Shown one piece after another: positions 17,748-38,611 of a stretch of 64,000 nt of DNA. The notes beneath the pieces are model-generated. The model searched no databases, had not been told where the DNA came from, and saw nothing but the letters and a program-made list of their open reading frames with translations. Numbering within the stretch: the first letter of the stretch is position 1; each line of letters begins with the position of its first letter. A program made the position numbers and the translations under genes. This DNA is from Acidobacteriota bacterium (GTDB taxonomy: Bacteria; Acidobacteriota; JAAYUB01), in assembly GCA_040768985.1 (NCBI GenBank), contig JAXGLX010000002.1, positions 4,485,871-4,549,870 on the forward strand, in the 5' to 3' direction.

Positions 17748-19109
17748 ATGCGGGCGTTGCTGACTGTCGGGTTGATCGGCATCTTGCTGGCCCTGGCGGC
17801 CGCCCAGGGGGATCCGCGGGACCTGCCGCGGGTGCAGAGCGCCAACATCGTCTACCTGGGCTCCTTCGCGCTGCCGGAGGGCGACTTCGGCGGCTCGCGG
17901 TTCGGCTACGGCGGCAAGGGACTCTGCTTCTACCGGGAGCCGTCCGGCACGCCCTCGTTGTTCCTGCAGGGGCATGACTGGTACCCCGGGTTCGTGGCCC
18001 AGGTGTCCGTGCCGGACCTGGGCGGAACGGCGACCGTGCTCCAGGAGTTCCGCGACGTCACCGACGGCGCGCTGGCGACGCTGGCCACGTCGGATTCGTT
18101 CGTTTACGGCATGATGGTGTACGACGGGCGGCTCATCGTGGGCGCCTCGTGCTACTACGACGGGGACGCCAGCCAGGTGAACTCCCACGGCGTCTCGACC
18201 TTGAACCTGGCCGCCCCCGACGACTTCCAGGGATTTTACCCGATGGCCGCCGAGGCCAATCCGCGCTCCCTGGGGGGCTACATGACGGTGATCCCCGCCG
18301 AATGGCAGGCGCTGCTGGGCGGACCGGCGCTGACGGGCAAGGGATGCCTGTCCATCATCTCCAACAACAGCGCCGGACCGTGCGCCACGGTGTTCGACCC
18401 CGACGACGTGGGCGCCGCCAGCCCGATCCCCGGCTTCACCCTGATCTTCTACCCGCTGGCGCACCCGCTGGCGCCGGAGACCACCACCAACGAGCTGTTC
18501 AACCTGGCCACCCACATGGCGGGCATCGCCTTCCCGCCGGGGAGCCGGAGCGTGCTCTTCTTCGGGCGGCAGGGGACCGGGACCTACTGCTACGGCGTCG
18601 GCGGCGGCGTGGAGTGCGACGACCCGTGCGACGACAGCCACGGCACCCACGCCTGGCCGTACCGCCATCAGGTGTGGGCGTACGACGCCGCCGAGCTGCT
18701 CCAGGTGCGGAGCGGCGCGAAGGCCTGCTGGGAGATGCGTCCCTACGCGGTCTGGGCGCTCGAGGGGATGACCGGCGGCACCTGCGCCGACATGGAGGGC
18801 GCCGCGTACGATCCGGCGACGGGCCGCCTCTACGTCACCGAAAGCTACGCCGAGGAGCCCCGCGTGCACGTCTACCGGATCATGGTTCCGTCGGCGGTGA
18901 CGCGGGACGGCGACATCAACGGCGACGGCGGGTGCGACGTGCGCGACGCCGTGGTGCTGGCGGTGACGCTGGCGGGCGGCCTCGCCTCCGGCACGCCCCC
19001 CTGCGCGCGCCCGCTGGCGTGCGATTTCACCGGCGACGGGTCGCTGGACGCCGAGGACCTGCTGATCCTGGGCGCCTACTTCGCCGGCAGCCGGACCGCG
19101 CTTCCCTGA
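17748..19109 (+). CDS. Secreted hypothetical protein with C-terminal dockerin-like duplicated Ca-binding segment
   Basis: Track ORF 17745-19109; signal-peptide-like N-terminus; DINGDGGCDVRD and DFTGDGSLDAED loops each followed by a hydrophobic helix. Confidence 0.7.
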   Translation: MRALLTVGLIGILLALAAAQGDPRDLPRVQSANIVYLGSFALPEGDFGGSRFGYGGKGLCFYREPSGTPSLFLQGHDWYPGFVAQVSVPDLGGTATVLQEFRDVTDGALATLATSDSFVYGMMVYDGRLIVGASCYYDGDASQVNSHGVSTLNLAAPDDFQGFYPMAAEANPRSLGGYMTVIPAEWQALLGGPALTGKGCLSIISNNSAGPCATVFDPDDVGAASPIPGFTLIFYPLAHPLAPETTTNELFNLATHMAGIAFPPGSRSVLFFGRQGTGTYCYGVGGGVECDDPCDDSHGTHAWPYRHQVWAYDAAELLQVRSGAKACWEMRPYAVWALEGMTGGTCADMEGAAYDPATGRLYVTESYAEEPRVHVYRIMVPSAVTRDGDINGDGGCDVRDAVVLAVTLAGGLASGTPPCARPLACDFTGDGSLDAEDLLILGAYFAGSRTALP

Positions 19110-19285
19110 CCGGGCCGGTGTCGGGATCACCGGCCGGGCCGCAAACCGGCCGGCCTCGTTGATTCACGCGCCGATCACTTCACCACCACCTTGAGCAGCG
19201 TACCAGCCGGCAGGGCGTCGTCGAGCTGGACGCCGTTGAGGATCGCCGCCGCCTCGAGCTTGTCCGCGGCCACGCCCAACTGCTG
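19011..19285. repeat. Left copy of a ~275-bp diverged direct repeat (about 90% identity to 30423-30700) covering the dockerin-gene 3' end, the intergenic hairpin and the M48-peptidase 3' end
   Basis: Direct alignment of the two regions by eye. Confidence 0.8.
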
Positions 19286-19450
19286 GAATGCGAGCAGGGG
19301 GTGGTCGAAGGTCTGGCCCTCGCCGTAGCCTTGGCGGAGTCTTCACCGACAGCCCTGACAGGGCCGGTTGCGCCTGGCTGTACCGAGGCACGCTGCGACG
19401 CGCCGCTTTCGTGACGTCCTCGGGTGAGGTTCAACCCGTCAGGGTTTGTG
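19175..19450 (-). pseudogene. Decayed remnant of an M48 peptidase gene (paralogous to 30586-32067) with an internal deletion
   Basis: Reverse-complement reads ...RQGYGEGQTFDHPLLAFQQLGVAADKLEAAAILNGVQLDDALPAGTLLKVVVK*, matching the intact peptidase C-terminus but missing about 440 bp; right boundary uncertain. Confidence 0.6.
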
Positions 19451-19562
19451 GAGATAATCGGTGCGGGGCATCCTGTGTTCAATCTGCCGACTCCATCCGG
19501 TTGCGGAGGCTCTCGAAGCCCTCGCGCAGGGACTCCCGGCACTTCCGGCGTCTGCTAGCTTC

Positions 19563-19592
19563 TTGATTGAGTGTAGGTATTATGTGTAATAT
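19563..19592 (+). promoter_or_regulatory. Candidate promoter TTGATT-N18-TAATAT in an AT-rich patch upstream of the giant gene
   Basis: Hexamers read directly; locally low GC in an otherwise GC-rich window. Confidence 0.3.
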
Positions 19593-19664
19593 ATCCAACA
19601 TTCCCACAATCAGGCGGGACGCAGTTTGCGGGTGATGTTTTCCGGCCGGAAGGGTAGGTGAAAC

Positions 19665-22600
19665 ATGTTCAGATCGTCCCTGACACGGCACGGCAGCTTC
19701 TTCACCGGTCAAGAGCGGACGGATCGCCGGCAGCGTCCGGCCGGTCGCGTCGGACGCTGCGGGTTCGCGGTCGGGATCGTATTCATCGCCCTGGCCCGGC
19801 TGGGCGCCCAGGACCTGGAGATCGCCGGCGACCCATCGATCAACCGGTGCGAGGCCAAGGTCTACACCCTCACCCTGCAAAACGATTCCGGAAATCCGTT
19901 GACCCGCCTGGTGGCGAGTGCCGATCTCTCGCTGTTGACGGGATTTTCGTACGTGCCCGGCAGCACCTCGATTTGGGTCAACGCCGAGCCGGTGTTCTGC
20001 ACCGCCGATCCTGCGGCCGGCGGCGGCTCCTTGATCTGGGACCTGGATGCGCTTTGCGGCCCGACGGTGGGCCTGGACGATGGCGACACGCTGAGTGTCA
20101 CCTTTCAGCTTCAAACGGCGTGCGCCGCCGTCTCCGGTTCCCTGGGCAGCCGGTTTAACTATGACATTGCGGGGACGCCGTCCGAGATCTTAGCGGCCCG
20201 CGCCATCCAGGTGTTGCCGGGCCGGCTGAGCATCCGGAAAACCCCCAGCGTCATCTCCCAGGAGGTGGGTCAAAACGTCACCTGGACCATCGCCGTGGAG
20301 AACACCGGCCTGGGAACGGTCCGGAACGTGGTGGTGACCGACGGGTTGGGGGCGGGCCTCGAGTACGTGGCGTCGTCGCCGGCCGGCCTCAACGCCGGGC
20401 CGACGACCCGCTGGGATGCGGCCCAGGTGCCGGGCCTGGCGCTGATGGTTCCCGGCGACATCATCACCCTCGACGTCACGGTGAAAGTCATCGCCTGCAC
20501 CGGCCTGGACAATTCCGCCGACGCGCGGTGGGGCTGCAACCCGGCGACCGACTGTTTCGACACCGCCGTCGACGGCGGGACGGCCACCGCGGTGGTGCAG
20601 CGGATCCCCCGTTCTCCCAGCCTGAGCTTGACGCCCCCCGACATCGGTTTCTCATACTGCGAGGACAGCGGCCCGCAGGCCTTGAGTGTGGAGAATATCG
20701 GTGACGGGACGGCCCGAGCGGTCGAGCTGTGGATCGACTTCAGCCCGCTGGCCGTCGCCGCGTCGTCGGTCCCCTACAACGCCGCCGGTTACTTTGAGCT
20801 GCCCGACATCGCCGCTGGCGGCCGTGTCGACGTGACGTTCACCCTGGCGTACGCCGGCTGGTGCGGCGGAGCCGACCTGGCGGGAACGCTGATCTGGCAA
20901 CCGCGCTACGCCGACGACTGCGGCGGCGCCTATTTCGCCCCGGTGGAATACAGCGAGATCCTCCCGGCAACCGGGACGCCCGGCCTTTCGGTCGACGTCA
21001 CCGGCGCCCCCGACGTCATCTCCATCGGGGACGCGGTCACGTACGCCGTCACATCCAACTATTCGGGGACCTTGAACTGCGGCGCGGGGAGCGTCGGGGC
21101 CGTCACCGTCACCGACACGGTCCCCGCGGGCTTCACCGTCGTGGACGCCGGCGGCGGGACCTGGGTTCCCGGGGCCGGCGGCACCGGCGGCGCGGTGACC
21201 TGGGCCTATCTCCCTCCCGCCACCCTCGCCACGACGCTGACCCTCCAAGCGCCCCTCCGGGACGAGTGCGAAACCTGGTGCTTCACCACGTTCGCCAACT
21301 CCGTCGAAGCCTCCGTCACCGACTGCTGCGGCTGTGAGCACACGGCGGCGGCGTCGCAGTCTTCGGCGATCGTGTGCGAGGAACTGGTCATGGTCACCCG
21401 GACCGCCACGCCGGCCACCGCGGAGCGCTGCTCGAATATCCTGTACACCAACATGTATGCATTCGACGGCTCGGCCGGCGCCCTCCTCAACGAGTTGGTG
21501 TTCACCGAACGGGCCGACCATCAGCAGCAGTACGTCCCCGGATCGCTGACCGTCACTTTCGACGGCGGTGACGTCACCGGATGCGTGCTCGTCACCGACA
21601 CGACCCCGGGCGGGACGCTGACCCTCGACTTCTCCGGTTGCGCCGCCGCCGCGGTGGGCGCGAAAGCGCTGGTCATCACCTACCAGCTGACCATCACCGA
21701 GGCCACCGCCGCCGCCTGCGGGGGAACGGAATTCTACGCCTGGTCCGCCCTGCAGCAGGGGAGCACCGGATCCCAGTGCCTTGTGGACGGGACCATCTAC
21801 GAGGCCGTCGCCGTCGCCGTCGAGGCGCCGGCCATGTCTCTCCGGTTGTCGGGCCTGTCGACGGTCGTGGACCGGTGCCGGACGGAGACGGTGACCCTCA
21901 CCCTGGCCCAAACGTCCATGGCCGCCAATCCCCGGGACGTCCGGCTCGTGCTGTCCGGCCTGAACTATTACGTGGTCAATCCAAGCGCAGCCATTTGCGC
22001 CGGCGACGTTTCGCCCATCTCCTGCACCCCCGCCCTGGTGGGGGACGACTTCGTCTGGTATTTCGGCGACGGATTCACCGGTGCCGGGCAGAGTTGCGTC
22101 CTCCAGTTCCAGGTGCAGAAGCGCTGTTCCGGCGGGGGGAGCCTGGAGGCCACGGCCTTCTTCGACGACCGCTGCCACGACGACGGCGTTTATGACGATA
22201 CCTGCTCCGTGAGTGGCGGCCTGACCCCCGCCGCCATCCGCGGAGGCGACCTGCTGGTGGAAGTGAGTCCGGAGGTCTACCAGGCCGCCTCCTCTTCGGT
22301 GGAGTGGAAGGTTTTCGTCACCAACCGGGGCGCGGGCACCGCCGCCAACGTGTGGGTGGATCACTTCCTGGGCGCCGGGCTCGATTTCAGTTCCGCTGTC
22401 GTCGACGACATGACCGGCGTCACCGTCACCGCCGACATGGACCACACCGGGGGCGCCGTCAACGGCGCCACCGTCGCCATCGACGCCCTGGCGCCCGGCG
22501 AGCGGCGGGAAATTTCCTTCCACGCGGTCCTGATCGACACCTTTAACCTGACCCTCGACGTGGCCGCCGCCTGGGGCTGCGTCGGCGTCGACTGCCAGTC

Positions 22601-25600
22601 GGCCGTGCGGGACAGTTCCACGGTGGAGACCCTCACGCCCATGCTGGTGGACACCGCCGTCGTGACCACTCCCGTGGATGCCTGCGGCGGCTCCACGGGC
22701 ACGCTCACGCTCCGCAACGCCGGACAGACCGCCTGCTACAACGGCCAGGTCACGGAGACGTTGCCGGCCGGCCTGCGGTACGTCTCCGGCACGACCCGCT
22801 GGCGGGTGAACGGCGGAGCATGGAACGGGCCCGACGCCGCCTACGACCCCAATCCCACCGTCTCTCCCCTGCGCTGGACCGCCACCGGGATCCCGGGATT
22901 GGCGGTTCTGAACCCGGGGGACACCCTGGATGTGGACTACGACTTGTCCGCGGACTGTCCCTTCACCGGCGGGCCGGTCACGGTCACCGTGTCGTACGAG
23001 GACCCCGGCGGGCAGGTCATCAACAATCCGGCGTCCACCTTCTCCGTGGCGTTCCGGGCGCCCGACCTCCGGGTGACGAAAACCCGGGCCGACCAACCGG
23101 TAAGCTGCGGGGAACTCATCGAGTGGACCATCGCGGTGGAGAACCAGAGCGGCTACACGCTTCCCATCGTCTGGGTCGAGGACACCCTGGATGCCGCCTT
23201 TACCTTCAACTCCTCGGTGGGAGACCCGCCCTACACGGCCGACGACGGCACCTTTGACGGCGTGAATCGGGTCAGCTGGGAACTGAGCTATCTTGGTCCC
23301 GGAGAAACCGCGATTCTGACCTTGCGGGCCTCATTGGATTCATCACCCTGCAGCCCGGACCTGGACAACACGGTCCGGGCCTGGTGGGGTTGCGGAACCG
23401 CCGACGGCTCGTCTGCAACCCAGCCAGGCGTGGATCCTCCCGATAACGGCCTTTGTCTGAACCCGACGCCGGTGAGCTACGTACGCACCGAGACCCGGCA
23501 GCCGAGCTTGACCGATTTCGCCGTCGGCCTCTCCCCCGCATCCATCGATGCCTGCAACGGCGGCACCGAAGTGACCTTCGCGTGCGCCAACACCGGCACC
23601 ACGGATGCTTTCCTCCTCGATGTCGAGATCTCCCTGCCCGCCGGGCTGACGTACAATCCCGGGACCGCCCGACTGTATGTCGGAGCCGACGGCACGGGCG
23701 CCACCACACCCATCGCCGATCCCGCCGTTTCGGGGAATCGGCTGATCTTTTTCGACACGGCCGACAAGGTCAACAACCTGGTCGATGTGCTGCAGGCCGC
23801 CGGTGGCAGCGACACGCTGGTGCTGAAATTCGAATTGCGATCGGATTGCTTTTTCGCGGCCGACCTGGGATACGCCGTGCGCTTCTACGACTGCTGCGGC
23901 GACACCCAGTACCAGCTCAGCGGCAGCCAGACAGTGCCGGCGCTCAACCCCGAGCTGACCGTCACCCAGGCGCCGGCATCCGCGCAGATCGCCTGCGGGG
24001 GACAGCAGGCCTGGACCATCACCGTCACCAACACGGGGGCGGGTAACGCCCAGGTGGTCCGAATCGAGGACACGCCCGGCGCCTGGATTACCGTGGACCC
24101 GGGCGCCTCCACCGCCGGGCTGACGGACCTGGGCTCCGGAAAGTGGGGCTGGGAGATCAACGATCTCGCCTCCGGCGGCGCGCAGGTCTTCACCCTGGCG
24201 GGAACCCTGAACCCGGCCGGGAACGGCTGCGATGCGTCCCGGCGCGAAAACAACGTCCGGGCTGTCTGGGGGTGTGGCACCGCCGGCGATGCCACCGACG
24301 GCGATCCCCTCACCCAAAGTTACGACTGCACCTCGGCGGTCTGGGCGACCGCCCCGACCGCCATTCTCCGGCTGCCCAACCTGGCCGTTGGCGCCGTCGC
24401 GCCTGCGGCCGCCTGCGCCGCCGACGGATCCTTCACCGGCAGCATCGCCGTCTCGATCGTCAACGCCGGCGACGGGAGCACCGGCGGCGGCTTCCTGATC
24501 CAGGCCGCCGACGGGCAGGGCTGGACCGGCACCTTCGCTTGCGCCAACATCCTCGCCGCCGGAGAAACTCTGAACCTCGACATCCCGGGCTCCTCCTGGT
24601 CGCCGGCGTGGGTGCCCGCCTGCACCCCCTGCGCCGCGGCCTCGCCCTACAGCTTCACCGTCGTGCTCGACCCGACGGGCGCCGTCTGCGAGTGCGACGA
24701 GAGCGACAATGCCCTGGCCGGGATCCTCTTCGACGTGCACCGCCCCGAACTGGCGGTGACGGACATCGATTTTGCGCTCGTCGCCTGTTCCGGCGACCAG
24801 GTCGCCGGCGCCATCCGCGTCCGCGTGGACAACACCGGGTGCGCAGACGCGGCCGGGGTCGTGGTTCGACTGACAGCCGACTGCGGGCTCACCTTCGGCG
24901 ACCAGATCACCAATGTGCCGGCGGGATCCCACACCCTGGCCGAGTTCCCGATCGTTGACGGTGCTTGGAACGACTGCGCCGACGAAACCTGCGCCTTCAC
25001 GGTCGCGGTGGATCCGGCGGGGCTGATCTGCGAGTGCGTGAGCGGCGGCGACACCCTCGGACCCGTGACCCACACGCTGTCCCTCCCGGACCTTGAGGTG
25101 ACCGACATCGAGCTGGGCGCCCTGAGTTGCGACAGCGGCGTCGTGTCCGGTTCGGCGTCCGTCACCGTCCGCAACGCGGGGAGCGGCGCGGCGGGCGCCT
25201 TCAGCGTCAGCCTGTCCACCCCGGCCGGCCTGGCGTTCACCGACCAGCCCGTCGCCGCGCTGGCTGCGGGCGAGAGCATCACCCTCGTATTCCCCGCTGC
25301 GGGGAGCCTGCCCGACTGCTGCCTCTGCGCGGCCGATTTCACCGCCGCGGCCGACGCCGCCCAGGCTGTCTGCGAGTGCCGGGGGGACAACAACGTCCGC
25401 ACCGTCCGGCCCGCGGCTGCGGACAAGATCTACTGGACGGACGAGAGTGCCGGCGCCATCCAGCGCGCCGAGGCCGACGGCGCCTCCGTGGAAGCGGTGC
25501 TCGCCGGGCTGGCCGGACCCCGCGCCGTGACCCTCGACGGGACCGGCGGCAAGATGTACTGGCTCGAGCCGGCCGGCGGCGTTCTCCGCCGGTCGAACCT

Positions 25601-28600
25601 GGACGGCACCGATCCCGAAACCCTGCTGGACAGCCTGTCGGCGCCGGTGGCCCTGGCTCTCGATCCGGCCGCCGGTCTGCTCTACTGGACCGACGCCGCG
25701 GGGGTGCACCGGGCTGGCCTCGACGGCGCCGATCCGGAGAATCTCATCCCCTCCGTGACGGATGCCGCCGGCATCGCCGTCGACTCCATCACCGGACGGC
25801 TCTATTTCGCCCAACCCGACGGCCGGATCCGCGGGGCGAACCTTGACGGCAACGACCTTCAGGAGGTGATCGCGGGCCTGGGCAGTCCCTTCGGCCTGGC
25901 GCTGGACATCCGGAACGGCATGCTCATATTCTCCGATCCGCTGACCGGCCTGATCCAGCGGATCTATCCGGACGGCACCGGCCTGACAACCGTGCTCGGC
26001 GGCCTGGAGTCCGCGGTGGGGTGCCTGGCCCTGAACGCGGAGGCCGAAACGGTCTACTACGAGACCCGGGGCGCCGCCATCCGCCGGGTGGGCCTGGACG
26101 GCGCGGGGGACGCGGCGATCGTCGACGGCCTGGACCAGTCGGGCGGTGTGGCCGTCCTGAAACTCAACACGGCGCCTACGGCCACGGAGATGAACCAGAC
26201 CCGCGACTATCTCCAGGGCGCCGCGACCGTGCCGCTCAACGATATCGTCGTGACCGATCCGGACTTCTGCGATACGGTCATGGCCGTCCTGATCCTGGCC
26301 GACCCGTCGTTGGGCGGTCTGTCCGACAGCAGCGGGCACGGCGAAACCTACGACGCCGCGGCGGGCCGGTGGACGGTCACCGGATCCGTGGCGGACGTCA
26401 ACGCCGCCCTGGCCGACGTCGCCTTCCTTCCGGTCCCCGACAATCCCGATGCCGAAACCGTCACCGTCCGGATCCGGGACGCTTCGGGGGCAGGCCCCGC
26501 CGATGGCGCCGTGGTCCTGGGCGTGATTCCCTATCCGGTCATTTCCGGGAGCGTCCGGCTCAACGGCGCCGGTGTCGCCGGCGTGGCGATGAACGGCCTG
26601 CCGGGCGGCATCGCCACTGACGCCTCCGGCGGCTACAGCGCCGTGTTGCCCCACGACTGGTCCGGGACAGTCACCCCGGACCTCGCCGGTTACCATTTCA
26701 CTCCCTCCAGCCGGACCTACGCCAACGTCGCCGTGGACCAGCCGGACCAGGACTATACCGCCACGGCCGCCACCGCCGCCGTCCTGGTTTCGGAACCGAA
26801 TCCATCGGTCTTCGGCGATCCGGTGACCCTGACGGTGACGGTCTCTTCCGCCGCCGGCCCGCCGCCCGGCACGGTGCGTTTTCTCGACGGCGCCGTCGAG
26901 ATCGGATCGGGGACACTGTCGGCCGGAGCCGCCGCTTTCTCCACCAGTCTGCTCTCCGGCGGGCTCCACGTCCTCACCGCCGCATACGACGGCAGTCCCG
27001 GCTACGAGACATCGGTTTCACCGCCCGTGAACCACCCGGTCAACCCGGCCGCCACGGCGACGAACCTCTCGTCGGCGCCCAATCCCTCGGTCTTCGGCGA
27101 CGCCGTGACCCTGACGGCCGTGGTCAGCTCCGGAGCGGGCACGCCGTCCGGGACAGTCACCTTCTTCGAGGGAGCCACGGTTCTCGGGAGCCAGGCGCTG
27201 GCGGGCGGTGTCGCCACTGTGGTTATTCCGTCGCCCCCTGGCGGCATTCACGGCTACAGCGCCGCCTATTCCGGCAACGCCGACCACCAGCCGTCCGCTT
27301 CGGCCGTCCTGAACCACTTGGTTCAACCCGCCCCCACCGCCACAACCCTGTCGTCGGCGCCCAATCCCTCGGTCTTCGGCGTCGCCGTGACCCTGACGGC
27401 GGTGGTGGTCTCTCCCGTCCCGGCGCCCGCCGGGAGTGTGGCCTTCCGCGACGGCGTCGTGGTGCTGGGAACGGTCGTCCTCTCCGGCGGCGGGACCGCG
27501 GTGTTCACCACGTCCGCGCTCACCGGGGGGACGCATTCGTTGACGGCCGAGTATCTCGGGACCGCGAACCACGCGGCCTCCACCTCCCCGGCCGTCCTGC
27601 AAACGGTTCGCCGGGCCGCGACCGCCACGACGGTCTCGTCGTCCGTCAACCCGTCCCGGTACGGACAGCCGGTGACGTTCACCGCCGCGGTGGCCGGCCC
27701 CGGGAGTCCGCCCACCGGCACCGTCGTTTTCCGGGCGGACGGCGCCGATCTCGGTCCGGCGGTGCCCCTGTCGGGCGGCATGGCCGTCCTGACCACTTCC
27801 GACCTGGCGGTGGGCGGCCACACGATCACCGCGCACTACCGGCCCATGGCCGACCCGAATCACCTGCCCAGCGAGGAGTCGCTGACCGGCGGGCAGAACG
27901 TCGTCAAGGCAGACACGACGACCGCCCTGACGACCAGCCGATCGTCGAGATATGGAGAAGCGGTCAACCTCACGGCCGTCGTGGCGGTGATCCCGCCCGG
28001 GAGCGGAATGCCCTCGGGAACGGTGACGTTTTTTGACGGAGTGACTACCCTGGGAACAGGTACACTGTCGGGCGGAACGGCGACCTTCACCACGACGGCC
28101 CTGGCGGTGGGGCCGCACCAGCTGGCGGCCCGGTTCGAGGGGAACGCCTCGCTGAATCCCAGCGTATCGCCGTCCACATTCCACCGGGTGTATATGGCCC
28201 TAACCGGCACGGTGCTGGCGGCCGCGCCGAATCCCTCGCACCGGGGCCAGACTGTGACGTTCACGGCGACGGTGACGGCGACACCTCCGGGAGCGGGAAC
28301 GCCCACCGGGACGGTGACGTTCCGGGACGACGGGGTCGCTCTCGGCAGTGCGCCGCTGTCGAACGGTACGGCGACGTGGGCTACCGCGCAGTTGACGATG
28401 GGCACGCATCCTATCACCGCGGGATATTCCGGTGACGAGAATTTTCGGTCGAGCGATTCGGAGATCCTGTCCCAGGCCGTGGAACGGGCGGAGACGGCCA
28501 CCACGCTCCATGTGTCACCGAGCCCCGTCTGTCCGGGCGGGACGGTGACCTTGACGGCCATGGTGTCCGTCGTGCCCGCTGGTGAAGGGACACCGACGGG

Positions 28601-30341
28601 GAGTGTCGAATTCCGGGACGGCCCGGAGCTGCTGGGAACGGTGGCGCTGGACGGCAATCTCGCGGTGTCGATCACCCTCGCTGCCCCGGAAGCGGGGACC
28701 CTGATCGTTTCCGCCGCTTACTCGGGTGACGGGGAGTTCATGGGAAGCAGTTCCGATCCGCTGGACCTGGAGGTGGCGGAGCCGCCGGCGGTGACCCTGG
28801 ATCCGATCCCGACCACGGTCGGATCGTGGGCGAGCGCCGCGCTCACGGTGGAATACTCGGGGACGGAACCCGTCTCGATCCAGTGGTACGAGGGAGCCAG
28901 CGGCGACACATCCCTGCCGGTGCCGGGAGCGACCGAGGCCACCCTCGCCACTCCGGCGGTGGACTGGGATACCGGCTACTGGGCCCGGTTGCAAAACGAC
29001 TGCGGCCAGACGGACAGCGCGGCGGCGGCCGTGACGATCCGGAACACCTATTACCTGGCGCACGTGGCCATGGACGACTTGTGGTGGACGTCACTGACGG
29101 CGGTCAACTGGAGCGAACACGATCACCCGGTGGTCTTGGAGGCGTTTGGCGCGGACGGCACTTTGCTGGAAACGCGCACGCTGGATCAACTGGGTTCCCG
29201 GTGCCAGTTGGCGCAGGACGCGTCGGAGTTGTTCTCCGCGGAAACGCTGGCGCAGGACGTCTGGGTGAGAACCACCACCGCTTCGGACCTGAAGGGCCTC
29301 GTGGCGTTCGGGACCACCGACGGGGAAACCCAGGCCAACCTGCCGTTCCTGAAGGCGGCGTCCTTCCACTCGGCCTTCCCCTACGTGGTAACGGGGGTGG
29401 CCGGCTGGTACACCGGACTGACCTTGGTGAACACCGACGAGACGCCGGCTTCGGTCCGGCTGACCGCTCGGGATGAAGACGGCGGCATCCTGTCGGAGCA
29501 GGCAGTCGCCATCCCGGGCTATGGGAAGTACGTCCGGTTTCTTGAGGAGATTTTCCCGGACGTCGCCGATCCGACGCGGCTCCGAAACGTCCGGGTGCTT
29601 TCGGACCGGCGCCTGGTGGGATTCGAACTCTTCTGGAACCTCGACCTGGCGGGCCTCGCCGGATTGCCCGCTGTGTCCATGGACGAATTGCCGCCGGACG
29701 GCGGCACATACGATCACTTCTTCAACGAGATCCCGGATTCGGGTAGTTACTATACCGGCATCACCTTCGTGAATCTGGATCAGGCGCCGGCTGCCATCGC
29801 CGCCGCCGCCTTCGATGCGGCCGGATCGCAGTTGGGGACGGAATATCTTGAACTGCCTCCCGGCAGCCAGTTGACCCGGGAGCTGCAGGCCGTGTTTCCG
29901 CCCCCGGACTATGCCGCGGCCGCGTACATCCGCTGGGACGCCCCGCAGCGCGTGACGGGTTTCGAGCTGGTGCTGACCCGGGATGGAGAATTCCTGTTCG
30001 ACGGCCTGGTGGGAGGGCTGGAACCCTGGCACCGGCTGGTGTTCCCGGCGGCCTCGCCCTCGGGCGGTTCAGTGCGGCTGCGGCTGACGAACCAGGAGAA
30101 CCTCCACCTGAATCTGGAGATCACGGCATACGACGCGGCGGGGGTGGCGCTGGCCACCCGCCCGGCAGACCTCGACGCGTACCAGTTGCTGGACCTGAAC
30201 CTGGGAGCCGACCTGGCGCCGGTGGCGGCGGAGATCGCCTGGGTGGAAGTGGAAGGCGACGGCCTGATGGTGGGCGACGCGTTCATCATCTCGGCCGACG
30301 GAAAGCGCCTGGTCATCTATGCCGGCTTTCCGGCGTGGTGA
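19665..30341 (+). CDS. Giant (3558 aa) secreted/cell-surface multi-domain protein: DUF11-like repeats, CARDB-like domains, YWTD-type six-bladed beta-propeller, seven Ig-like repeats, C-terminal repeated beta-sandwich-like modules
   Basis: Single uninterrupted track ORF; signal-peptide-like N-terminus; YWTD-like blades (KIYWTD, KMYWLE, LLYWTD, RLYFAQ, MLIFSD, TVYYET); repeated PNPSVFG...VTLTA Ig-like units; CECxxxDN motifs ending CARDB-like units. Confidence 0.85.
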   Translation: MFRSSLTRHGSFFTGQERTDRRQRPAGRVGRCGFAVGIVFIALARLGAQDLEIAGDPSINRCEAKVYTLTLQNDSGNPLTRLVASADLSLLTGFSYVPGSTSIWVNAEPVFCTADPAAGGGSLIWDLDALCGPTVGLDDGDTLSVTFQLQTACAAVSGSLGSRFNYDIAGTPSEILAARAIQVLPGRLSIRKTPSVISQEVGQNVTWTIAVENTGLGTVRNVVVTDGLGAGLEYVASSPAGLNAGPTTRWDAAQVPGLALMVPGDIITLDVTVKVIACTGLDNSADARWGCNPATDCFDTAVDGGTATAVVQRIPRSPSLSLTPPDIGFSYCEDSGPQALSVENIGDGTARAVELWIDFSPLAVAASSVPYNAAGYFELPDIAAGGRVDVTFTLAYAGWCGGADLAGTLIWQPRYADDCGGAYFAPVEYSEILPATGTPGLSVDVTGAPDVISIGDAVTYAVTSNYSGTLNCGAGSVGAVTVTDTVPAGFTVVDAGGGTWVPGAGGTGGAVTWAYLPPATLATTLTLQAPLRDECETWCFTTFANSVEASVTDCCGCEHTAAASQSSAIVCEELVMVTRTATPATAERCSNILYTNMYAFDGSAGALLNELVFTERADHQQQYVPGSLTVTFDGGDVTGCVLVTDTTPGGTLTLDFSGCAAAAVGAKALVITYQLTITEATAAACGGTEFYAWSALQQGSTGSQCLVDGTIYEAVAVAVEAPAMSLRLSGLSTVVDRCRTETVTLTLAQTSMAANPRDVRLVLSGLNYYVVNPSAAICAGDVSPISCTPALVGDDFVWYFGDGFTGAGQSCVLQFQVQKRCSGGGSLEATAFFDDRCHDDGVYDDTCSVSGGLTPAAIRGGDLLVEVSPEVYQAASSSVEWKVFVTNRGAGTAANVWVDHFLGAGLDFSSAVVDDMTGVTVTADMDHTGGAVNGATVAIDALAPGERREISFHAVLIDTFNLTLDVAAAWGCVGVDCQSAVRDSSTVETLTPMLVDTAVVTTPVDACGGSTGTLTLRNAGQTACYNGQVTETLPAGLRYVSGTTRWRVNGGAWNGPDAAYDPNPTVSPLRWTATGIPGLAVLNPGDTLDVDYDLSADCPFTGGPVTVTVSYEDPGGQVINNPASTFSVAFRAPDLRVTKTRADQPVSCGELIEWTIAVENQSGYTLPIVWVEDTLDAAFTFNSSVGDPPYTADDGTFDGVNRVSWELSYLGPGETAILTLRASLDSSPCSPDLDNTVRAWWGCGTADGSSATQPGVDPPDNGLCLNPTPVSYVRTETRQPSLTDFAVGLSPASIDACNGGTEVTFACANTGTTDAFLLDVEISLPAGLTYNPGTARLYVGADGTGATTPIADPAVSGNRLIFFDTADKVNNLVDVLQAAGGSDTLVLKFELRSDCFFAADLGYAVRFYDCCGDTQYQLSGSQTVPALNPELTVTQAPASAQIACGGQQAWTITVTNTGAGNAQVVRIEDTPGAWITVDPGASTAGLTDLGSGKWGWEINDLASGGAQVFTLAGTLNPAGNGCDASRRENNVRAVWGCGTAGDATDGDPLTQSYDCTSAVWATAPTAILRLPNLAVGAVAPAAACAADGSFTGSIAVSIVNAGDGSTGGGFLIQAADGQGWTGTFACANILAAGETLNLDIPGSSWSPAWVPACTPCAAASPYSFTVVLDPTGAVCECDESDNALAGILFDVHRPELAVTDIDFALVACSGDQVAGAIRVRVDNTGCADAAGVVVRLTADCGLTFGDQITNVPAGSHTLAEFPIVDGAWNDCADETCAFTVAVDPAGLICECVSGGDTLGPVTHTLSLPDLEVTDIELGALSCDSGVVSGSASVTVRNAGSGAAGAFSVSLSTPAGLAFTDQPVAALAAGESITLVFPAAGSLPDCCLCAADFTAAADAAQAVCECRGDNNVRTVRPAAADKIYWTDESAGAIQRAEADGASVEAVLAGLAGPRAVTLDGTGGKMYWLEPAGGVLRRSNLDGTDPETLLDSLSAPVALALDPAAGLLYWTDAAGVHRAGLDGADPENLIPSVTDAAGIAVDSITGRLYFAQPDGRIRGANLDGNDLQEVIAGLGSPFGLALDIRNGMLIFSDPLTGLIQRIYPDGTGLTTVLGGLESAVGCLALNAEAETVYYETRGAAIRRVGLDGAGDAAIVDGLDQSGGVAVLKLNTAPTATEMNQTRDYLQGAATVPLNDIVVTDPDFCDTVMAVLILADPSLGGLSDSSGHGETYDAAAGRWTVTGSVADVNAALADVAFLPVPDNPDAETVTVRIRDASGAGPADGAVVLGVIPYPVISGSVRLNGAGVAGVAMNGLPGGIATDASGGYSAVLPHDWSGTVTPDLAGYHFTPSSRTYANVAVDQPDQDYTATAATAAVLVSEPNPSVFGDPVTLTVTVSSAAGPPPGTVRFLDGAVEIGSGTLSAGAAAFSTSLLSGGLHVLTAAYDGSPGYETSVSPPVNHPVNPAATATNLSSAPNPSVFGDAVTLTAVVSSGAGTPSGTVTFFEGATVLGSQALAGGVATVVIPSPPGGIHGYSAAYSGNADHQPSASAVLNHLVQPAPTATTLSSAPNPSVFGVAVTLTAVVVSPVPAPAGSVAFRDGVVVLGTVVLSGGGTAVFTTSALTGGTHSLTAEYLGTANHAASTSPAVLQTVRRAATATTVSSSVNPSRYGQPVTFTAAVAGPGSPPTGTVVFRADGADLGPAVPLSGGMAVLTTSDLAVGGHTITAHYRPMADPNHLPSEESLTGGQNVVKADTTTALTTSRSSRYGEAVNLTAVVAVIPPGSGMPSGTVTFFDGVTTLGTGTLSGGTATFTTTALAVGPHQLAARFEGNASLNPSVSPSTFHRVYMALTGTVLAAAPNPSHRGQTVTFTATVTATPPGAGTPTGTVTFRDDGVALGSAPLSNGTATWATAQLTMGTHPITAGYSGDENFRSSDSEILSQAVERAETATTLHVSPSPVCPGGTVTLTAMVSVVPAGEGTPTGSVEFRDGPELLGTVALDGNLAVSITLAAPEAGTLIVSAAYSGDGEFMGSSSDPLDLEVAEPPAVTLDPIPTTVGSWASAALTVEYSGTEPVSIQWYEGASGDTSLPVPGATEATLATPAVDWDTGYWARLQNDCGQTDSAAAAVTIRNTYYLAHVAMDDLWWTSLTAVNWSEHDHPVVLEAFGADGTLLETRTLDQLGSRCQLAQDASELFSAETLAQDVWVRTTTASDLKGLVAFGTTDGETQANLPFLKAASFHSAFPYVVTGVAGWYTGLTLVNTDETPASVRLTARDEDGGILSEQAVAIPGYGKYVRFLEEIFPDVADPTRLRNVRVLSDRRLVGFELFWNLDLAGLAGLPAVSMDELPPDGGTYDHFFNEIPDSGSYYTGITFVNLDQAPAAIAAAAFDAAGSQLGTEYLELPPGSQLTRELQAVFPPPDYAAAAYIRWDAPQRVTGFELVLTRDGEFLFDGLVGGLEPWHRLVFPAASPSGGSVRLRLTNQENLHLNLEITAYDAAGVALATRPADLDAYQLLDLNLGADLAPVAAEIAWVEVEGDGLMVGDAFIISADGKRLVIYAGFPAW

Positions 30342-30414
30342 GTCTGGAGGAGTGGAATATCCTGAACCGTCGGGGCGTCCGGCCTGGTTGGGGCGGGAAC
30401 AGCCCACCCGGAAT

Positions 30415-30520
30415 GCTGCCCCCGCTGGCGTGCGATTTCACTGATGACGAGTCGCTGGACGCGGCGGACCTGCTGATCCTGGACGCCTACTTCGCCGGCC
30501 GCCGGACCGCGCTTCACTGA
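30415..30520 (+). pseudogene. Dockerin-like C-terminal module fragment, out of frame (+2) with the giant ORF
   Basis: Track ORF 30335-30520 tail ...LPPLACDFTDDESLDAADLLILDAYFAGRRTALH matches the C-terminus of the 17748-19109 product. Confidence 0.5.
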
Positions 30521-30700
30521 CCGGGCCGGTGTCGGGATCACCGGCCGGGCCGCGGACCGGCGGGCTCCGGTGATTCACGCGCCGCTTACTTCACCACCAC
30601 CTTGAGCAGCGTGCCGGCCGGCAGGGCGGCGTCGAGCTGGACGCCGTTGAGGATCGCCGCCGCCTCAAGCTTGTCCGCGGCCACGCCCAACCGCTGGAAC
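30423..30700. repeat. Right copy of the ~275-bp diverged direct repeat
   Basis: Aligned by eye to 19011-19285. Confidence 0.8.
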
Positions 30701-32067
30701 GCCTGGCGGGCGGTGCCGGCCGCGGCGGTTTTCCGGAGCGTCAGCTTGTTCGGCTTGGCGTTGAGCTTCGCCGGATCCGTCAGGTTGTTGAAGCCGGCCA
30801 TGGTTTGCTTGAACACGGAAAAGTAGCGGTCGAACAGCGACGGGTCGGTGTAGCTGTGGAACACGTAGACGTACTTGTCCTTCTGAATGAAGGACGACGC
30901 GACGCGGATGTTTCCCTGCTCCAGCGCGACGTCGGAGACCAACTGCTGTGCGAGCAAGCCGTTGATCCGCGCGGCTTGTGATTGAAGGATGGACGCCTGG
31001 CTCTCCTGCCGGAACGCCTCCGCGGCCGCCGCCGGCGAGGCGCCGGGGGCCATGGAGAACAGGATCACCGCGTCCTGCTGCGCGGCGTAGAGCTGCACCT
31101 GGGCCGCGGTGTTGTTCACCTTCCAGCCCGAGGGCACCGGGAACTGGAACGCGAGCTGGGGATGATAGAAAGTCTGCCCCTCGACGTAGCCCTGGCGGGG
31201 GTCTTCGCCGAAGACGAGCCCCTCGAGGCGGCTGAGGTACCCGTCGCGGTTGGTGACGAACGCCGCGCCTGCCAGCTTTTCCTGCCAGACCTGGGCGTCG
31301 CGCCGGATGGCCGCGATCCGGTCCGGAGGGTTGGGGTGGGTGGAGAACCAGCCGGGCAGGCCGCTGCGGTCGGAGCCCGGGTTGAGCCGCTCCAGCGTGA
31401 CGAACATGTTGGCCATGTGGTTGGCGTCAAACCCGGCCCGGGAGGCATACTCGACGCCCAGGGCGTCCGCCTGGCGCTCGTCGTCGCGGCTGAACTTCAG
31501 GAAGAGCATGCTCAGCCCCAGTTGGGCGATGCCGGCGTACTTCTGGAACGTCTCGGAGAACATGCTGCCCACGCCCAGCCCCAGCATGGCCAGTTGCGCC
31601 TGGCTGTACTGGCGCACGCTGTGGCGCGCCGCGATGTGGCCGATCTCGTGCGACATGACGCCGGCCAGCTCCGCCTCGTCGTTGAGGTAGGAGAGCATCC
31701 CCCGGGTCAGATACACGTACCCGCCGGGGACCGCGAAGGCGTTCACCACGTCGCTGTCCACCACCTGGAGGGTGTAGGTCAGGTCCGGCCGGTGGCTCAG
31801 CGCGCCCAGCTTGTGGCCCAGCGCGGCCACGTAGGCGTCGAGTTCCGGGTTGTTGTACTTGCCGTACGTCTGCAGGATCTCGGGATCGAGCTGCTTGCCC
31901 AGGGCGATCTCGTCGGCGGTGGAGACGAGCATCAGCTCCCGTTTGCCCGTGACCGGATTCTTCGCGCAGGACATGCTCCAGATCACCAGGGTGGCCGCCA
32001 CGACCACGGCAGCGGTCCGCCAAACGATGGAACGACGCATCGCGCACCTCCTGATAGTGGGAACCAA
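30586..32067 (-). CDS. M48-family zinc metalloprotease with C-terminal extension
   Basis: Track ORF 493 aa; HEIGH zinc-binding motif; N-terminal signal/lipobox-like region; alternative start at MRRSIV (32040). Confidence 0.85.
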   Translation of the reverse strand: MVPTIRRCAMRRSIVWRTAAVVVAATLVIWSMSCAKNPVTGKRELMLVSTADEIALGKQLDPEILQTYGKYNNPELDAYVAALGHKLGALSHRPDLTYTLQVVDSDVVNAFAVPGGYVYLTRGMLSYLNDEAELAGVMSHEIGHIAARHSVRQYSQAQLAMLGLGVGSMFSETFQKYAGIAQLGLSMLFLKFSRDDERQADALGVEYASRAGFDANHMANMFVTLERLNPGSDRSGLPGWFSTHPNPPDRIAAIRRDAQVWQEKLAGAAFVTNRDGYLSRLEGLVFGEDPRQGYVEGQTFYHPQLAFQFPVPSGWKVNNTAAQVQLYAAQQDAVILFSMAPGASPAAAAEAFRQESQASILQSQAARINGLLAQQLVSDVALEQGNIRVASSFIQKDKYVYVFHSYTDPSLFDRYFSVFKQTMAGFNNLTDPAKLNAKPNKLTLRKTAAAGTARQAFQRLGVAADKLEAAAILNGVQLDAALPAGTLLKVVVK

Positions 32068-32190
32068 CCGATGATCCTATTATAGTACTTTTGTGGCGTG
32101 CTCACCCGAAATCAGGGGTTCCGGTTCCTGTCGAACGGGGGTGGCGATGACGGTCGTGACGCCGGTGGCCCGTCATCAGGTGGCGGTTTC

Positions 32191-33108
32191 TTAAGGGCCG
32201 AGCACCAGGCCCAGACGGGCGGCGTCGTATGCCGGCGTCGCGCCGGAACGCGATGCCACGTAGGCAGCCAGCCGGCAGGCGTCGGCCAGGACCGCCGGCC
32301 AGGGGGGCGTCGCCCGGGCGGTCAGGGCGGCGGCGAGCACGGCGGTAAAGGCGTCGCCGGCTCCCACCGTGTCACGGACGGTCACCGGCTCGGGCCGGCA
32401 GCGGTGCCAGCGTCCGTGATCCAGGAGGATCGCGCCGTCGGCGCCCAGGGTGACGCAGATCCGACGGCATCCGGTGCGCCGTTGCAGCGCCGCGACGGCC
32501 GCTTCCAGGGGGGTGCCGGCAGCGGCGCCCGACAGCACCAATAGCTCCTGCCGGTTGAGCTTGAGCAGGTCCGCCCGGCGGGCGAGCCGCAGGGCCCGGG
32601 CCCGGTCATCATGGGGGGGGCGCAGGTTGATGTCGCAGATGCGGATGGCCGCGGTTGCTTTCAGTAGCCGGGCCAGCGTTCGCCGGTTCGGGGCCTGGCG
32701 GAGGGCCAGGCTGCCAAAGACGACGGCGTGCGGATTCTCAGCGGCGATCGCCGCTGCACCGCTGGGGTTGGGAATCCGATCCCAGGCGGCGGGTTCGGCG
32801 ATGGTGAAGCGGGGGTTGCCGTCCGCATCCAGCGAGACGCGCACTGTGCCGGTGGGCAGGTCCCGCCGGATCGCCACGGCCCGCGTGTCCACGCCGAGGC
32901 GGTTCAGGGTGGCCAGCGCTTCGGCGCCCGGGCCGTCGTCGCCCACCGCCGACACCGGCAAGGCCCGGCGGCCTAGACGGCGCAGGTGTACGGCCACGTT
33001 CAGGGGTGCCCCGCCCATGAACCGGCCGGTGGGCAGGTGGTCCCAGAGGATCTCGCCGAAGCAGAGGATCGGTCCCGTCGGCGGACGCTCGCCCGCGGCC
33101 CGGTTCAT
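32191..33108 (-). CDS. PfkB-family carbohydrate kinase (fructokinase-like)
   Basis: In-frame part of track ORF 32191-33795 from MNRAAG; GAGDAF-type PfkB motif (DTVGAGDAFTA); ATGA overlap with the upstream gene stop. Confidence 0.8.
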   Translation of the reverse strand: MNRAAGERPPTGPILCFGEILWDHLPTGRFMGGAPLNVAVHLRRLGRRALPVSAVGDDGPGAEALATLNRLGVDTRAVAIRRDLPTGTVRVSLDADGNPRFTIAEPAAWDRIPNPSGAAAIAAENPHAVVFGSLALRQAPNRRTLARLLKATAAIRICDINLRPPHDDRARALRLARRADLLKLNRQELLVLSGAAAGTPLEAAVAALQRRTGCRRICVTLGADGAILLDHGRWHRCRPEPVTVRDTVGAGDAFTAVLAAALTARATPPWPAVLADACRLAAYVASRSGATPAYDAARLGLVLGP

Positions 33109-35174
33109 GATCCGGCCACCTGGAGTTCGTGGCAGGTCCGGATGAACTCCGCTGCCGACCAGGCCTGGTAACGTTTGCCCATGGGCCGTCCCGTCACTCC
33201 GTGGGCCCATTCGTTGAATTCCCACTCCCCGGCGATGCCGGTCCGGTTGAGCTCGGCCAGTCGGACCAGCTCCTGGCGAGCGAGTTCGGGGAGGCCGATC
33301 CGGTGGATGAACCGGACCCACTGGGCGCCGATGAACGGCCACACGCCGCCGTTGTGATAGTGGTGGGGCAGATTCATCAGGTTGACGGTGTAATACCGGC
33401 GCCAGTCCGGGTCGCCGCCCGTCACCACCGGGTAGAGGTTGGCCACCGGGAAGGGCTGGTTGACGCCCACTCCCCACATGAAGCGGAACGCCTGCCGCGC
33501 CTTCTCCAGATCCAGCACCCCGTACAGGAAGGCCATCACGTTGCCCAGGACGTCGCACCGCCAGCTGTAATCGAACGGAGTGACCTGGGCGATCAGGTAG
33601 CGGGCATCGCCCAGCGCGAACTGCTGGTCGGCGAAACTGGGCCCCTCGCCGGGAGCGGGCTGGCTGGTGCTGGGCCAGAAGTGAAGCAGGATTTCCTTCT
33701 TGATCACCTGGGACCAGCGCAAGTAGTCGCCGGCCCGGGCATCTTCCCCCAGCAGCTCCAGCATCCGGCCGAAACAGATGTTGGCGCGGTACCACAGGAT
33801 CTCATCATAGAGCACGTTGTAGCTCCGGCCGAACAGGTCGGTCCAGTCACCGGCTTCGGGGATTTCAAGAAGGGCGTCGTTGTTGCCGTCGTGGGCGCTG
33901 AGCCAGTCCATGGCCCGCTGCAGGCGGCCGGCGTGCCGGCGCAGGAACTCCAGGTCATGGGTCGCCTTGGTGTACTCGTAGCAGGCGATGACAAGCCACA
34001 GGCCGCTGTCGATGGAGCAGATGCTGCCGATCCCCGAGTAATCGGGCCGGCCTGAATCGATGGCCACGTTGGTGGGGATCTGCCCGTTGGGCGACAGGTT
34101 GCCCAGCAGGGTCTCCAGGGTGGCGAGCTGGCACCGACGGATGGACTCGTCGCCGGCGAGCGGCAGCGATCCGCACACGGCGATGGAACCATCCCGGGCC
34201 CAGACGCTCCGGTAATTGATGTCGGTGCCCGAGGGATCGTTGTCGGGCAGCGAGCACGCCGAAAAGCCAACCGAGGTCACGTTCCTGCGCAACGCCTCCA
34301 CCGCCCGCCCGTAGGCCAATCGGATGAAGGCCTCCTCGTTGCTGACCGGTCGTTCTGTCCGGCCGTGATCGGGCAGAAAGGGAACCTGGCCCGCGTCGGT
34401 CTCGGTCTCCGGTAGTTTCGCACCGGCGGGGAACACCTGGTAATGGCTCAATCCCTCCACCACGCCCCGGGCGCAGGGCGCCGCCGCGTGGTAAAAGGGC
34501 CGGTGCTTGGTGGCCTGGTACAGTTCCGGCTGGGCGTTGCCCACCACGATCCCCTTGACCTGATCGATGAGGAACATGGCCAGGTCGTTGCCGCTGTCAC
34601 CGGCCACCAGGACATGATCGGCTCGGATCTTCAAGTGGCGGATCAGCCAGCGCAGGGCATTGCCCTTGTTCGCCCAACGGGGCAGAATGTCCAGGTGGAG
34701 GGAACTGGAATACACCACCACCACGTCCAGCCCGGCTTTGGTCAGCCGCTTTTCGACCAGGGCCAGTTGCTGGGGCTCGGCGTTTTCCAAAAACCAGCTG
34801 GATTTGAACCGGTTCTGAAAATGGTTGGGCTGGCGGGTGATGGGCAGGTCCACCTGGCGGATGATCCCGTCCACCCGGGCCAGGTTCCATCCCTCTTCCA
34901 GGATTTCTGAAAACTCCTTGATGAGGCGGCCCTGGCGGCGGTCGAAGATGCCCGTGCCGACGCCGGCGATGATGAAATCGGCCTCCGGCAGCCCCTCCTG
35001 CCGACAGACGGCTGCGGTGTCATCCAAAAGCCGGCCCGTGTTGTAGCAGAGCAGGGGCCGCCGGCCGGAATCGAGCGCCTCCCATTGCATGCGGAAGAAA
35101 TGGGTGGCGGGCGGATCACCCAACAGGGTGCCGTCCAGATCGGACGCAAACAGCTTGATCGTGGCGGTGCGCAT
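33105..35174 (-). CDS. Fusion protein: N-terminal HAD-type sucrose-phosphate-phosphatase-like domain, C-terminal (alpha/alpha)6-barrel glycoside hydrolase-like domain (GH100 neutral-invertase-like)
   Basis: Track ORF 689 aa; HAD motifs DLDGTL and GDSGND; C-terminal glycosidase-like blocks. Confidence 0.7.
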   Translation of the reverse strand: MRTATIKLFASDLDGTLLGDPPATHFFRMQWEALDSGRRPLLCYNTGRLLDDTAAVCRQEGLPEADFIIAGVGTGIFDRRQGRLIKEFSEILEEGWNLARVDGIIRQVDLPITRQPNHFQNRFKSSWFLENAEPQQLALVEKRLTKAGLDVVVVYSSSLHLDILPRWANKGNALRWLIRHLKIRADHVLVAGDSGNDLAMFLIDQVKGIVVGNAQPELYQATKHRPFYHAAAPCARGVVEGLSHYQVFPAGAKLPETETDAGQVPFLPDHGRTERPVSNEEAFIRLAYGRAVEALRRNVTSVGFSACSLPDNDPSGTDINYRSVWARDGSIAVCGSLPLAGDESIRRCQLATLETLLGNLSPNGQIPTNVAIDSGRPDYSGIGSICSIDSGLWLVIACYEYTKATHDLEFLRRHAGRLQRAMDWLSAHDGNNDALLEIPEAGDWTDLFGRSYNVLYDEILWYRANICFGRMLELLGEDARAGDYLRWSQVIKKEILLHFWPSTSQPAPGEGPSFADQQFALGDARYLIAQVTPFDYSWRCDVLGNVMAFLYGVLDLEKARQAFRFMWGVGVNQPFPVANLYPVVTGGDPDWRRYYTVNLMNLPHHYHNGGVWPFIGAQWVRFIHRIGLPELARQELVRLAELNRTGIAGEWEFNEWAHGVTGRPMGKRYQAWSAAEFIRTCHELQVAGS

Positions 35175-35183
35175 GGAACGGCC

Positions 35184-38518: not shown

Positions 38519-38611
38519 CAGTCACCCTGCCTGTCCGGCAGATGGCAGGCGGCGGATCGGCGCGCAGGCGGAATATGTCCGCGGCGAGGCGGCCGTCGCC
38601 GCGGTTGTCCG

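Follow-up and report, generated by a model that had tools for sequence, protein, structure and literature searches.

How could a 10.7-kb adhesin-like gene come to lie between two convergent genes without inactivating either of them? A locus that raises this question is found in a 64,000-nucleotide stretch of an Acidobacteriota genome (assembly GCA_040768985.1, contig JAXGLX010000002.1, positions 4,485,871 to 4,549,870 of the forward strand), which we call the window and whose first letter is position 1 in all coordinates below. Here, an intact giant gene for a protein of 3558 amino acids (aa) is placed between a gene for a dockerin protein and a gene for an M48 metallopeptidase, and a diverged direct repeat on either side of it contains the ends of both flanking genes. 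A reading made from the letters of the window alone (the sequence-only reading) had suggested that the junction of the dockerin and M48 genes underwent a segmental duplication or an insertion long ago. Our analysis of the repeat, of contigs from the same species and of four sibling lineages supports that proposal, above all because one sibling has the junction without the giant gene. We put the probability at about 0.75 that the arrangement is the result of an old, lineage-specific and recombination-mediated insertion that duplicated its target, after which the redundant gene pieces decayed.

Results

The direct repeat and its two flanks

The two copies of the direct repeat (19007-19291 and 30418-30702) are 285 nucleotides (nt) long and align without gaps at 91.6% identity, with 24 mismatches. 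Pairwise alignment, a repeat finder and BLASTN (E=7.6e-107) all gave the same result, and the pair is the longest direct repeat found in the window. The sequence-only reading had described copies of about 90% identity at 19011-19285 and 30423-30700, a description that needed only a slight refinement of coordinates. It had also assigned to each copy a dockerin 3' end, a GC hairpin and an M48 3' end, which agrees with our comparison of open reading frames (ORFs), spacers and alignments. Of each copy, 103 nt are the 3' end of the dockerin-tail ORF, stop codon included; a 65-nt spacer follows, and then 117 nt that form the 3' end of the M48 ORF, which runs on the minus strand. The copies are separated by about 11 kb of unrelated DNA (19428-30417), so the structure is not a simple tandem duplication.

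On the left, the dockerin gene is intact (17748-19109, plus strand, 453 aa), and its last 103 nt lie inside the repeat. Its dockerin module, at residues 389-445, is a complete two-segment module of type I, with a Pfam Dockerin_1 score of 26.8 bits against a cut-off of 22.9 and a match to profile positions 2-55 of 57. Beyond the left spacer (19110-19174), the M48 sequence is a pseudogene (19175-19427, minus strand) that consists of three collinear blocks (19175-19291, 19283-19349 and 19350-19427) and is missing the 5' third of the gene. The second block aligns with 31144-31211 of the intact gene at 82% identity and the third with 31576-31653 at 74%, so that the remnant is collinear with the M48 gene out to at least residue 131, or 1.24 kb of target. 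Two deletions mapped by BLASTN separate the blocks. The first removed 450 bp in frame between two 9-bp CTGGAACGC repeats of the intact gene and is thus a typical microhomology deletion; the second removed 364 bp. The zinc motif HExxH is destroyed, and SPEDVT stands where the intact gene has HEIGH.

The right flank is arranged the other way around. A gap of 76 nt (30342-30417), for which no similarity was found elsewhere, separates the stop codon of the giant gene from the right repeat copy. The copy begins with a dockerin fragment (30418-30520, plus strand) that retains the second half of the module and the stop codon, has neither a start codon nor the first half of the module, and has acquired 8 unique substitutions. 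The right spacer (30521-30585) follows and lies 3' of both the giant gene and the M48 gene. The M48 gene itself (30586-32040, minus strand) is intact and encodes a BepA/LoiP-like metallopeptidase of 484 aa (Pfam Peptidase_M48, E=2.8e-38) with an intact HExxH motif, HEIGH at residue 131; NCBIfam matches to it score under the curated cut-offs. Thus, both flanks are as the sequence-only reading had them: an intact dockerin gene beside a decayed, internally deleted peptidase remnant on the left, and an intact peptidase gene beside a mere dockerin fragment on the right.

The first 33 nt of the spacer form a GC-rich inverted repeat that occurs in identical form at 19110-19142 and 30521-30553 and nowhere else in the window. 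We considered this hairpin as a canonical intrinsic terminator and rejected that assignment, as it folds no better than shuffled sequence (z from -0.3 to -1.7) and has no T tract. A terminator-like role is suggested solely by its position between convergent genes. Both copies have probably persisted because each still ends transcription, the left one for the dockerin gene and the right one for the giant gene and the M48 gene.

The arrangement in strains of the same species

The exact M48 protein is encoded on 9 contigs and the exact dockerin protein on 14, drawn from JGI, ENA, an NCBI metagenome-assembled genome (MAG; GCA_036769055.1) and Logan assemblies. The filled arrangement is present in every same-species contig long enough to show it. 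The left repeat copy and the next 660 nt are 100% identical in 8 contigs, and the right copy is likewise identical in 6. Thus, all strains sampled share one fixed arrangement without variation. From 18 to 36 kb, strains differ by about 0.05%, and we rejected the idea that low diversity is specific to the repeat-bounded block, because this whole stretch is near-clonal.

These contigs also bear on whether the repeat could be an assembly artefact, arising by strain collapse or chimerism, and on the related idea that the right dockerin fragment is the giant protein's own C-terminal tail, decayed after a frameshift. Short-read assemblers do break at the repeat: three short k-mer assemblies end at repeat position 129, within 37 nt over which the two copies do not differ. 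Even so, independent assemblies from at least 8 samples, JGI, ENA and NCBI assemblies among them, span both copies and agree base for base over sequences that differ at 24 positions, and an artefact is excluded for practical purposes. The idea of a decayed tail draws on the position of the fragment, 76 nt past the giant stop codon and on the same strand. However, the fragment is in the +2 frame relative to the giant ORF and contains only the second half of the module, the sequence 5' of 30418 is unrelated to the first half, and the similarity continues through the stop codon and the spacer into the M48 gene, as expected of a segmental copy. We find it hardly credible that either explanation accounts for the right-hand copy.

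Strain-level variation was seen at other places in the window. A 4.27-kb segment (11530-15796) is present in the window and in sibling species and is missing, without Ns, from four same-species contigs (L029, L030, L031 and L039). Compared with those contigs, the sequence on either side of it (10-11.5 kb and 15.8-17.9 kb) is 3-5% diverged, against about 0.05% elsewhere, and the segment looks like a recombination import or a strain-level indel. In five further same-species contigs (L001-L005), similarity to the window ends at 39608, where M23 peptidase and DsrE genes take over, and the preceding 2.6 kb are 1-6% diverged; the region 37000-39608 is another strain-level breakpoint.

Sibling lineages and the empty site

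Four sibling lineages with about 93-97% nt identity to the window cover the locus, which we call L040, L007, L008 and L041; the relatives are labelled Acidobacteriota. All four have an orthologue of the dockerin gene, at 92-94% aa identity, and none of the four (4/4) has the giant gene at the locus. L040, a 317-kb contig from activated sludge (ENA UPSM01000006.1, about 94% nt identity), shows an empty site: the dockerin gene, the same 65-nt hairpin spacer and the M48 gene follow one another, and an ABC-transporter gene comes directly after M48. Its single junction copy (11260-11541) aligns to both window copies. The comparison with a genome lacking the giant gene was thus positive and supports an old duplication or insertion at this junction.

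The other three siblings have a different occupant. In L007 (Acidobacteria MAG contig JAGOHA010000093.1), a 408-aa HGSNAT/acyltransferase-3 membrane-protein gene (2474-3700) lies between the dockerin gene and M48, and its 3' end overlaps that of the dockerin gene by 34 nt. L008 (Acidobacteriota MAG contig JAKQOW010000136.1, 11534-14527 and 14567-15991) and L041 (metagenome contig Ga0209201_1000032) have the acyltransferase gene together with about 3 kb containing a 997-aa ORF, which matched no family. Junction content therefore varies among the sibling lineages, and four states are seen: empty, acyltransferase, acyltransferase with the 997-aa ORF, and giant adhesin. Both window copies share with L040 the spacer type and the M48 C-terminus KVVVK, where L007 and L008 have KLVTK. 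This shared type indicates that both window copies descend from an L040-like empty site to which the giant-gene block was added. A more distant contig with a dockerin homologue at 77% aa identity (L042) was considered as an outgroup for synteny and dropped, as its neighbouring gene is unrelated.

Comparison with the siblings revealed further lineage-specific DNA in the window. The intact M48 gene is bordered by such DNA on both sides, since a 4.65-kb block beyond it (32055-36704) is absent from all four sibling lineages, which have about 90-140 nt of unmatched sequence between the ABC-transporter gene and M48 in its place. No flanking repeats were seen at this block, which encodes a PfkB kinase (about 32191-33111), a fusion of S6PP with a GH100-invertase-like part (33105-35174) and a GT4 sucrose-phosphate-synthase-like protein (35184-36506). 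In a second variable locus (7957-9803), 119-nt repeats, tandem or dispersed (8249-8650 and 9613-9803), lie on both sides of a family-less ORF of 259-262 aa (8685-9473, minus strand). L040 has 65 nt in place of 7957-9734 and no match to it, and L041 matches the region only in short repeats. Finally, a GC-rich repeat of 80 nt (up to about 290 nt) with internal palindromes occurs at 42378-42457 and 42710-42789, in L001 (152-433) and in L008 (4097-4172), with copies that are 86-89% identical, and may be a small dispersed repeat element.

Divergence and age of the two copies

Differences between the copies were polarised with L040, and with L007, L008 and L041 where available. In the 103 nt of dockerin sequence, the functional left copy has 1 unique change and the right-hand fragment has 8; in the 65-nt spacer, the counts are 2 (left) and 5 (right); and in the 117 nt of M48 sequence, the left copy has 3, all synonymous, and the right copy 4. 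These substitutions fit decay of the redundant parts. At fourfold sites, the window diverges from each sibling by K=0.11-0.16, or about 6-8% per lineage. The unique divergence of the dockerin fragment, 7.8%, is close to this per-lineage value, which places the event near the origin of the window lineage and makes it old.

The remaining blocks of the M48 remnant are more diverged. Unique changes number 3 of 117 nt in the repeat core, 10 of 68 nt in the second block and 18-20 of 78 nt in the third, a rate that climbs stepwise away from the dockerin gene, from 2.6% through 15% to 23-26%. Divergence of 19-26% in the outer blocks could mean that the duplication is older than the split between the lineages, in which case the filled state would be ancestral to both the window and L040 lineages, and L040 would have been emptied by homologous recombination between the direct repeats. 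Recombination across 285 nt would indeed restore exactly one junction copy. However, when we tested the L040 copy as a recombinant mosaic of the two window copies, no mosaic pattern appeared, and sites that agree with either copy are interleaved. The absence of the giant gene from L040, L007, L008 and L041 alike would require several independent losses, and the dockerin fragment, with its 7.8% of unique changes, agrees with an event inside the window lineage. We consider such an excision in L040 quite unlikely.

The inserted DNA and the giant gene

The insert consists of the giant gene (19665-30341, plus strand) with 237 nt on its 5' side and 76 nt on its 3' side. The 5' region (19428-19664, plus strand) is lower in GC (0.56), and neither M48 nor the sibling genomes showed any similarity to it. 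Presumably it belongs to the inserted DNA and carries the promoter and leader of the giant gene, and a consensus scan of it returned no promoter of the sigma-70 type. When both edges (19428-19664 and 30342-30417) were searched for the join of the duplication and for remains of the M48 promoter or 5' end, no match rose above chance. An inverted resemblance between 19601-19622 and the M48 leader (18/22, E=1.5) was treated as chance.

Domain scans of the giant protein identified an N-terminal hydrophobic segment, several DUF11/CLIPPER domains, CARDB, an LDL-receptor class B repeat, about 7-9 Ig-like Big_3_5 domains and Ig_7. The C-terminal 430 aa (residues 3129-3558; 29049-30338) have no Pfam or NCBIfam match and only two homologues in an index of 5.8 billion proteins (P0001 and P0002, 37-38% identity). 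Each stands alone as a protein of about 530 aa, and the gene for P0002 (L025, 6528-8117) adjoins an RHS/YD-repeat gene. The word index of proteins seems unable to retrieve giant proteins, as queries with the C-terminal 430 aa and the N-terminal 330 aa missed a near-identical protein from the same species; the exact 3558-aa protein is not on record, and the absence of close giant-protein matches therefore carries no meaning.

In every same-species contig, the giant ORF is intact across the part covered, with few and mostly synonymous differences, and dN/dS among strains is 0.15-0.46, a ratio computed on only 1-22 sites. By these measures, the gene looks functional. Collinear homologues elsewhere share 48-63% aa identity over up to about 1250 aa and occur on contigs of 36-61% GC. 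In two of three such contigs, a conserved partner gene lies 5' of the homologue (L048, 3-1241; L050, 2-2191), and the two partner proteins share 45% identity. No counterpart of this partner exists in the window, which fits the capture of a single gene.

We also looked for signs of a mobile element, in the form either of an island integrated by a recombinase, with the repeats as attL and attR, or of a transposon with a very long target duplication. Direct repeats do flank the insert, and the empty site holds one copy. In addition, a tentative 19-nt inverted repeat (16/19 matches) brackets the giant ORF, with one arm 42 nt before the start codon (19604-19622, plus strand) and the other 34 nt after the stop codon (30375-30393, minus strand), which might serve as transposon ends. 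It is the sole match with at most 3 mismatches in the window, and its local-alignment shuffle p is 0.03. However, its arms sit 176 nt and 24 nt inside the insert boundaries, and it was not found at homologous giant genes elsewhere; we record it only as marginal and build no explanation on it. As a separate observation, 18 of 22 positions agree between the left arm and the M48 leader (32063-32042). With Pfam, we scanned the giant ORF, both at full length and cut into 9 pieces, as well as 7 antisense or flanking ORFs, and detected no integrase, recombinase or transposase domain; a single ORF nearly fills the insert. A search of the window for tRNA and tmRNA genes found none, and no Rfam family matched. 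The absence of an integrase, a transposase and a tRNA, together with a long repeat of 285 nt made of ordinary flanking genes, far above the size of transposon target duplications, argues against a site-specific island or a transposon, and we judge both to be very improbable. A bolder idea would unite the inverted repeat with the four states of the junction: the junction would repeatedly have received cell-envelope genes in this clade without the help of a recombinase, and the giant gene would have moved as a unit bounded by the 19-nt inverted repeats, via an undescribed mechanism that copies hundreds of target bases. We regard this idea as highly doubtful.

Proposed origin of the arrangement

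The evidence is most consistent with the recombination-mediated insertion named at the outset. The ancestor of the window species had a dockerin gene, a 65-nt hairpin spacer and a converging M48 gene, as L040 still does. About 11 kb of DNA with the giant gene would then have entered this junction, and a junction copy now lies on each side of it. One intact copy of each flanking gene was retained, dockerin on the left and M48 on the right, and the redundant pieces are pseudogenes. We infer that general or illegitimate recombination was at work and not the dedicated enzyme of a mobile element. Two routes could place the target on both sides of the insert: a single crossover of the Campbell type with a circular intermediate, or a bridging of two sister chromosomes by incoming DNA. 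The bridging of sister chromatids by incoming DNA has been shown experimentally to lead to tandem duplications in pneumococcal transformation (Johnston et al. 2013, PLoS Genet, PMC3784515).

The duplicated target would have been at least 285 nt long and possibly at least 1.24 kb, and the two lengths correspond to two versions of the event that we hold to be about equally likely. In the first, at least 1.24 kb (30418 to at least 31653) would have been duplicated, and the 285-nt core would later have been made uniform again by gene conversion, bounded by the deletion at 19291. In the second, only 285 nt would have been duplicated, and the diverged M48-like blocks would have come with the insert, joined at a 9-bp microhomology, CTGGAAYGC.

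Several observations weigh against this proposed origin. Along the left M48 remnant, divergence is strongly uneven: unique changes number 11 across the 220 non-functional nt of the core and 29 across the 146 nt of the second and third blocks (Fisher p=1.2e-5), a contrast not expected if one duplication had been followed by neutral decay at a uniform rate. Neither version removes the difficulty entirely. Gene conversion is without direct support, as there is no strain polymorphism in either repeat copy. Blocks borne by a donor should show an excess of changes at third codon positions; the second block does (1, 3 and 6 changes at positions 1, 2 and 3), and the third block, with 4, 9 and 6, does not fit. 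A donor locus for the giant gene was not found among the homologue contexts examined, in an index that is poor for giant proteins, and neither the giant-gene homologues (L048-L050) nor the homologues of the C-terminal domain (L025-L028) have M48 or dockerin neighbours. The GC content of the giant gene, 0.65-0.74, is that of the genome and gives no compositional mark of foreign origin. Lastly, as the tree of the four lineages has no established root, either the empty or the acyltransferase state may be the older one for the whole clade, which leaves the inference for the window lineage unaffected.

The uneven remnant also invites an account in two events. A tandem duplication from the dockerin 3' end through M48, and possibly further, would have come first; the giant gene would later have been inserted by illegitimate recombination into the redundant left M48 copy, and gene conversion would have preserved the similarity of the core. 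Bacteria commonly undergo tandem duplication, and microhomology deletions would be ordinary pseudogene decay. The collinearity of the left remnant out to at least residue 131 favors this account, and a redundant copy tolerates insertion, as has also been argued for duplications in transformed pneumococci (PMC3784515). On the other hand, two rare events would be required at one spot, the 76-nt and 237-nt edges match nothing to the right of M48 and offer no recognizable join point, and the fourfold step in divergence at 19291 would still need a separate explanation. We take two successive events to be possible but somewhat unlikely.

Discussion

The locus that we describe offers a natural example, in uncultured Acidobacteriota, of a junction for which the filled site, the empty site and two alternative occupants are all available. 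A 10.7-kb adhesin-like gene appears to have been gained between two convergent genes with neither of them inactivated, and the redundant gene ends that were left behind would have decayed by microhomology deletions. The locus could be useful as a dated marker of gene gain. It also holds a caution for assemblers, since short-read contigs break inside the repeat.

The cargo resembles the giant DUF11/Big_3 adhesin-like surface proteins of environmental bacteria, in which a string of beta-sandwich repeats follows an N-terminal hydrophobic segment. It differs from them in its family-less C-terminal 430 aa, with two distant stand-alone homologues, and in the missing upstream partner of the L048 and L050 type.

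Among known ways of acquiring DNA, the insertion of a transposon usually duplicates 2-14 bp of target. The window, by contrast, has no transposase, no inverted repeats at the exact boundaries and a duplication of 285 nt or more. Genomic islands flanked by att sites are closer in outline, as they too are lineage-specific blocks bounded by direct repeats, in which the 3' end of an adjacent gene is present twice, with one copy in the empty site of relatives. Unlike such islands, the block described here lacks an integrase, a target in a tRNA or tmRNA gene and a short core of identical sequence, and its repeat covers two gene ends and the spacer between them. Homology-facilitated illegitimate recombination normally deletes or replaces recipient DNA and does not duplicate it. 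It would be a possible route if the M48-like blocks arrived as an anchor, and the border of the high-identity core coincides exactly with the 9-bp microhomology; however, the target is duplicated here, and the codon-position pattern of the third block does not support an anchor.

The merodiploidy that arises between sister chromatids in transformation (PMC3784515) has more in common with the events proposed here, since the pairing of DNA ends at two positions on sister chromatids gives a tandem duplication whose redundant copies are free to decay. Those duplications span 100-900 kb between repeats derived from insertion sequences in a competent Gram-positive host, whereas the duplication in the window spans 0.3-1.2 kb and has foreign DNA at the join; competence is a property of that host and is not known for this Acidobacteriota lineage.

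The second close parallel is insertion-duplication of the Campbell type, in which a circular molecule is integrated by a single homologous crossover, as in insertion-duplication mutagenesis. There, as in the window, the insert lies between direct copies of one contiguous chromosomal segment, the interrupted genes are intact on one side only, and no recombinase encoded by the element is required. A laboratory construct of this type differs from the old natural event described here, with its 8%-diverged copies fixed in the species, a left copy whose far end is much more diverged than the core, and no known circular intermediate or donor. Taken together, these comparisons indicate that the locus represents a known kind of event, a recombinational insertion with target duplication and pseudogene decay, and not a new kind of system.

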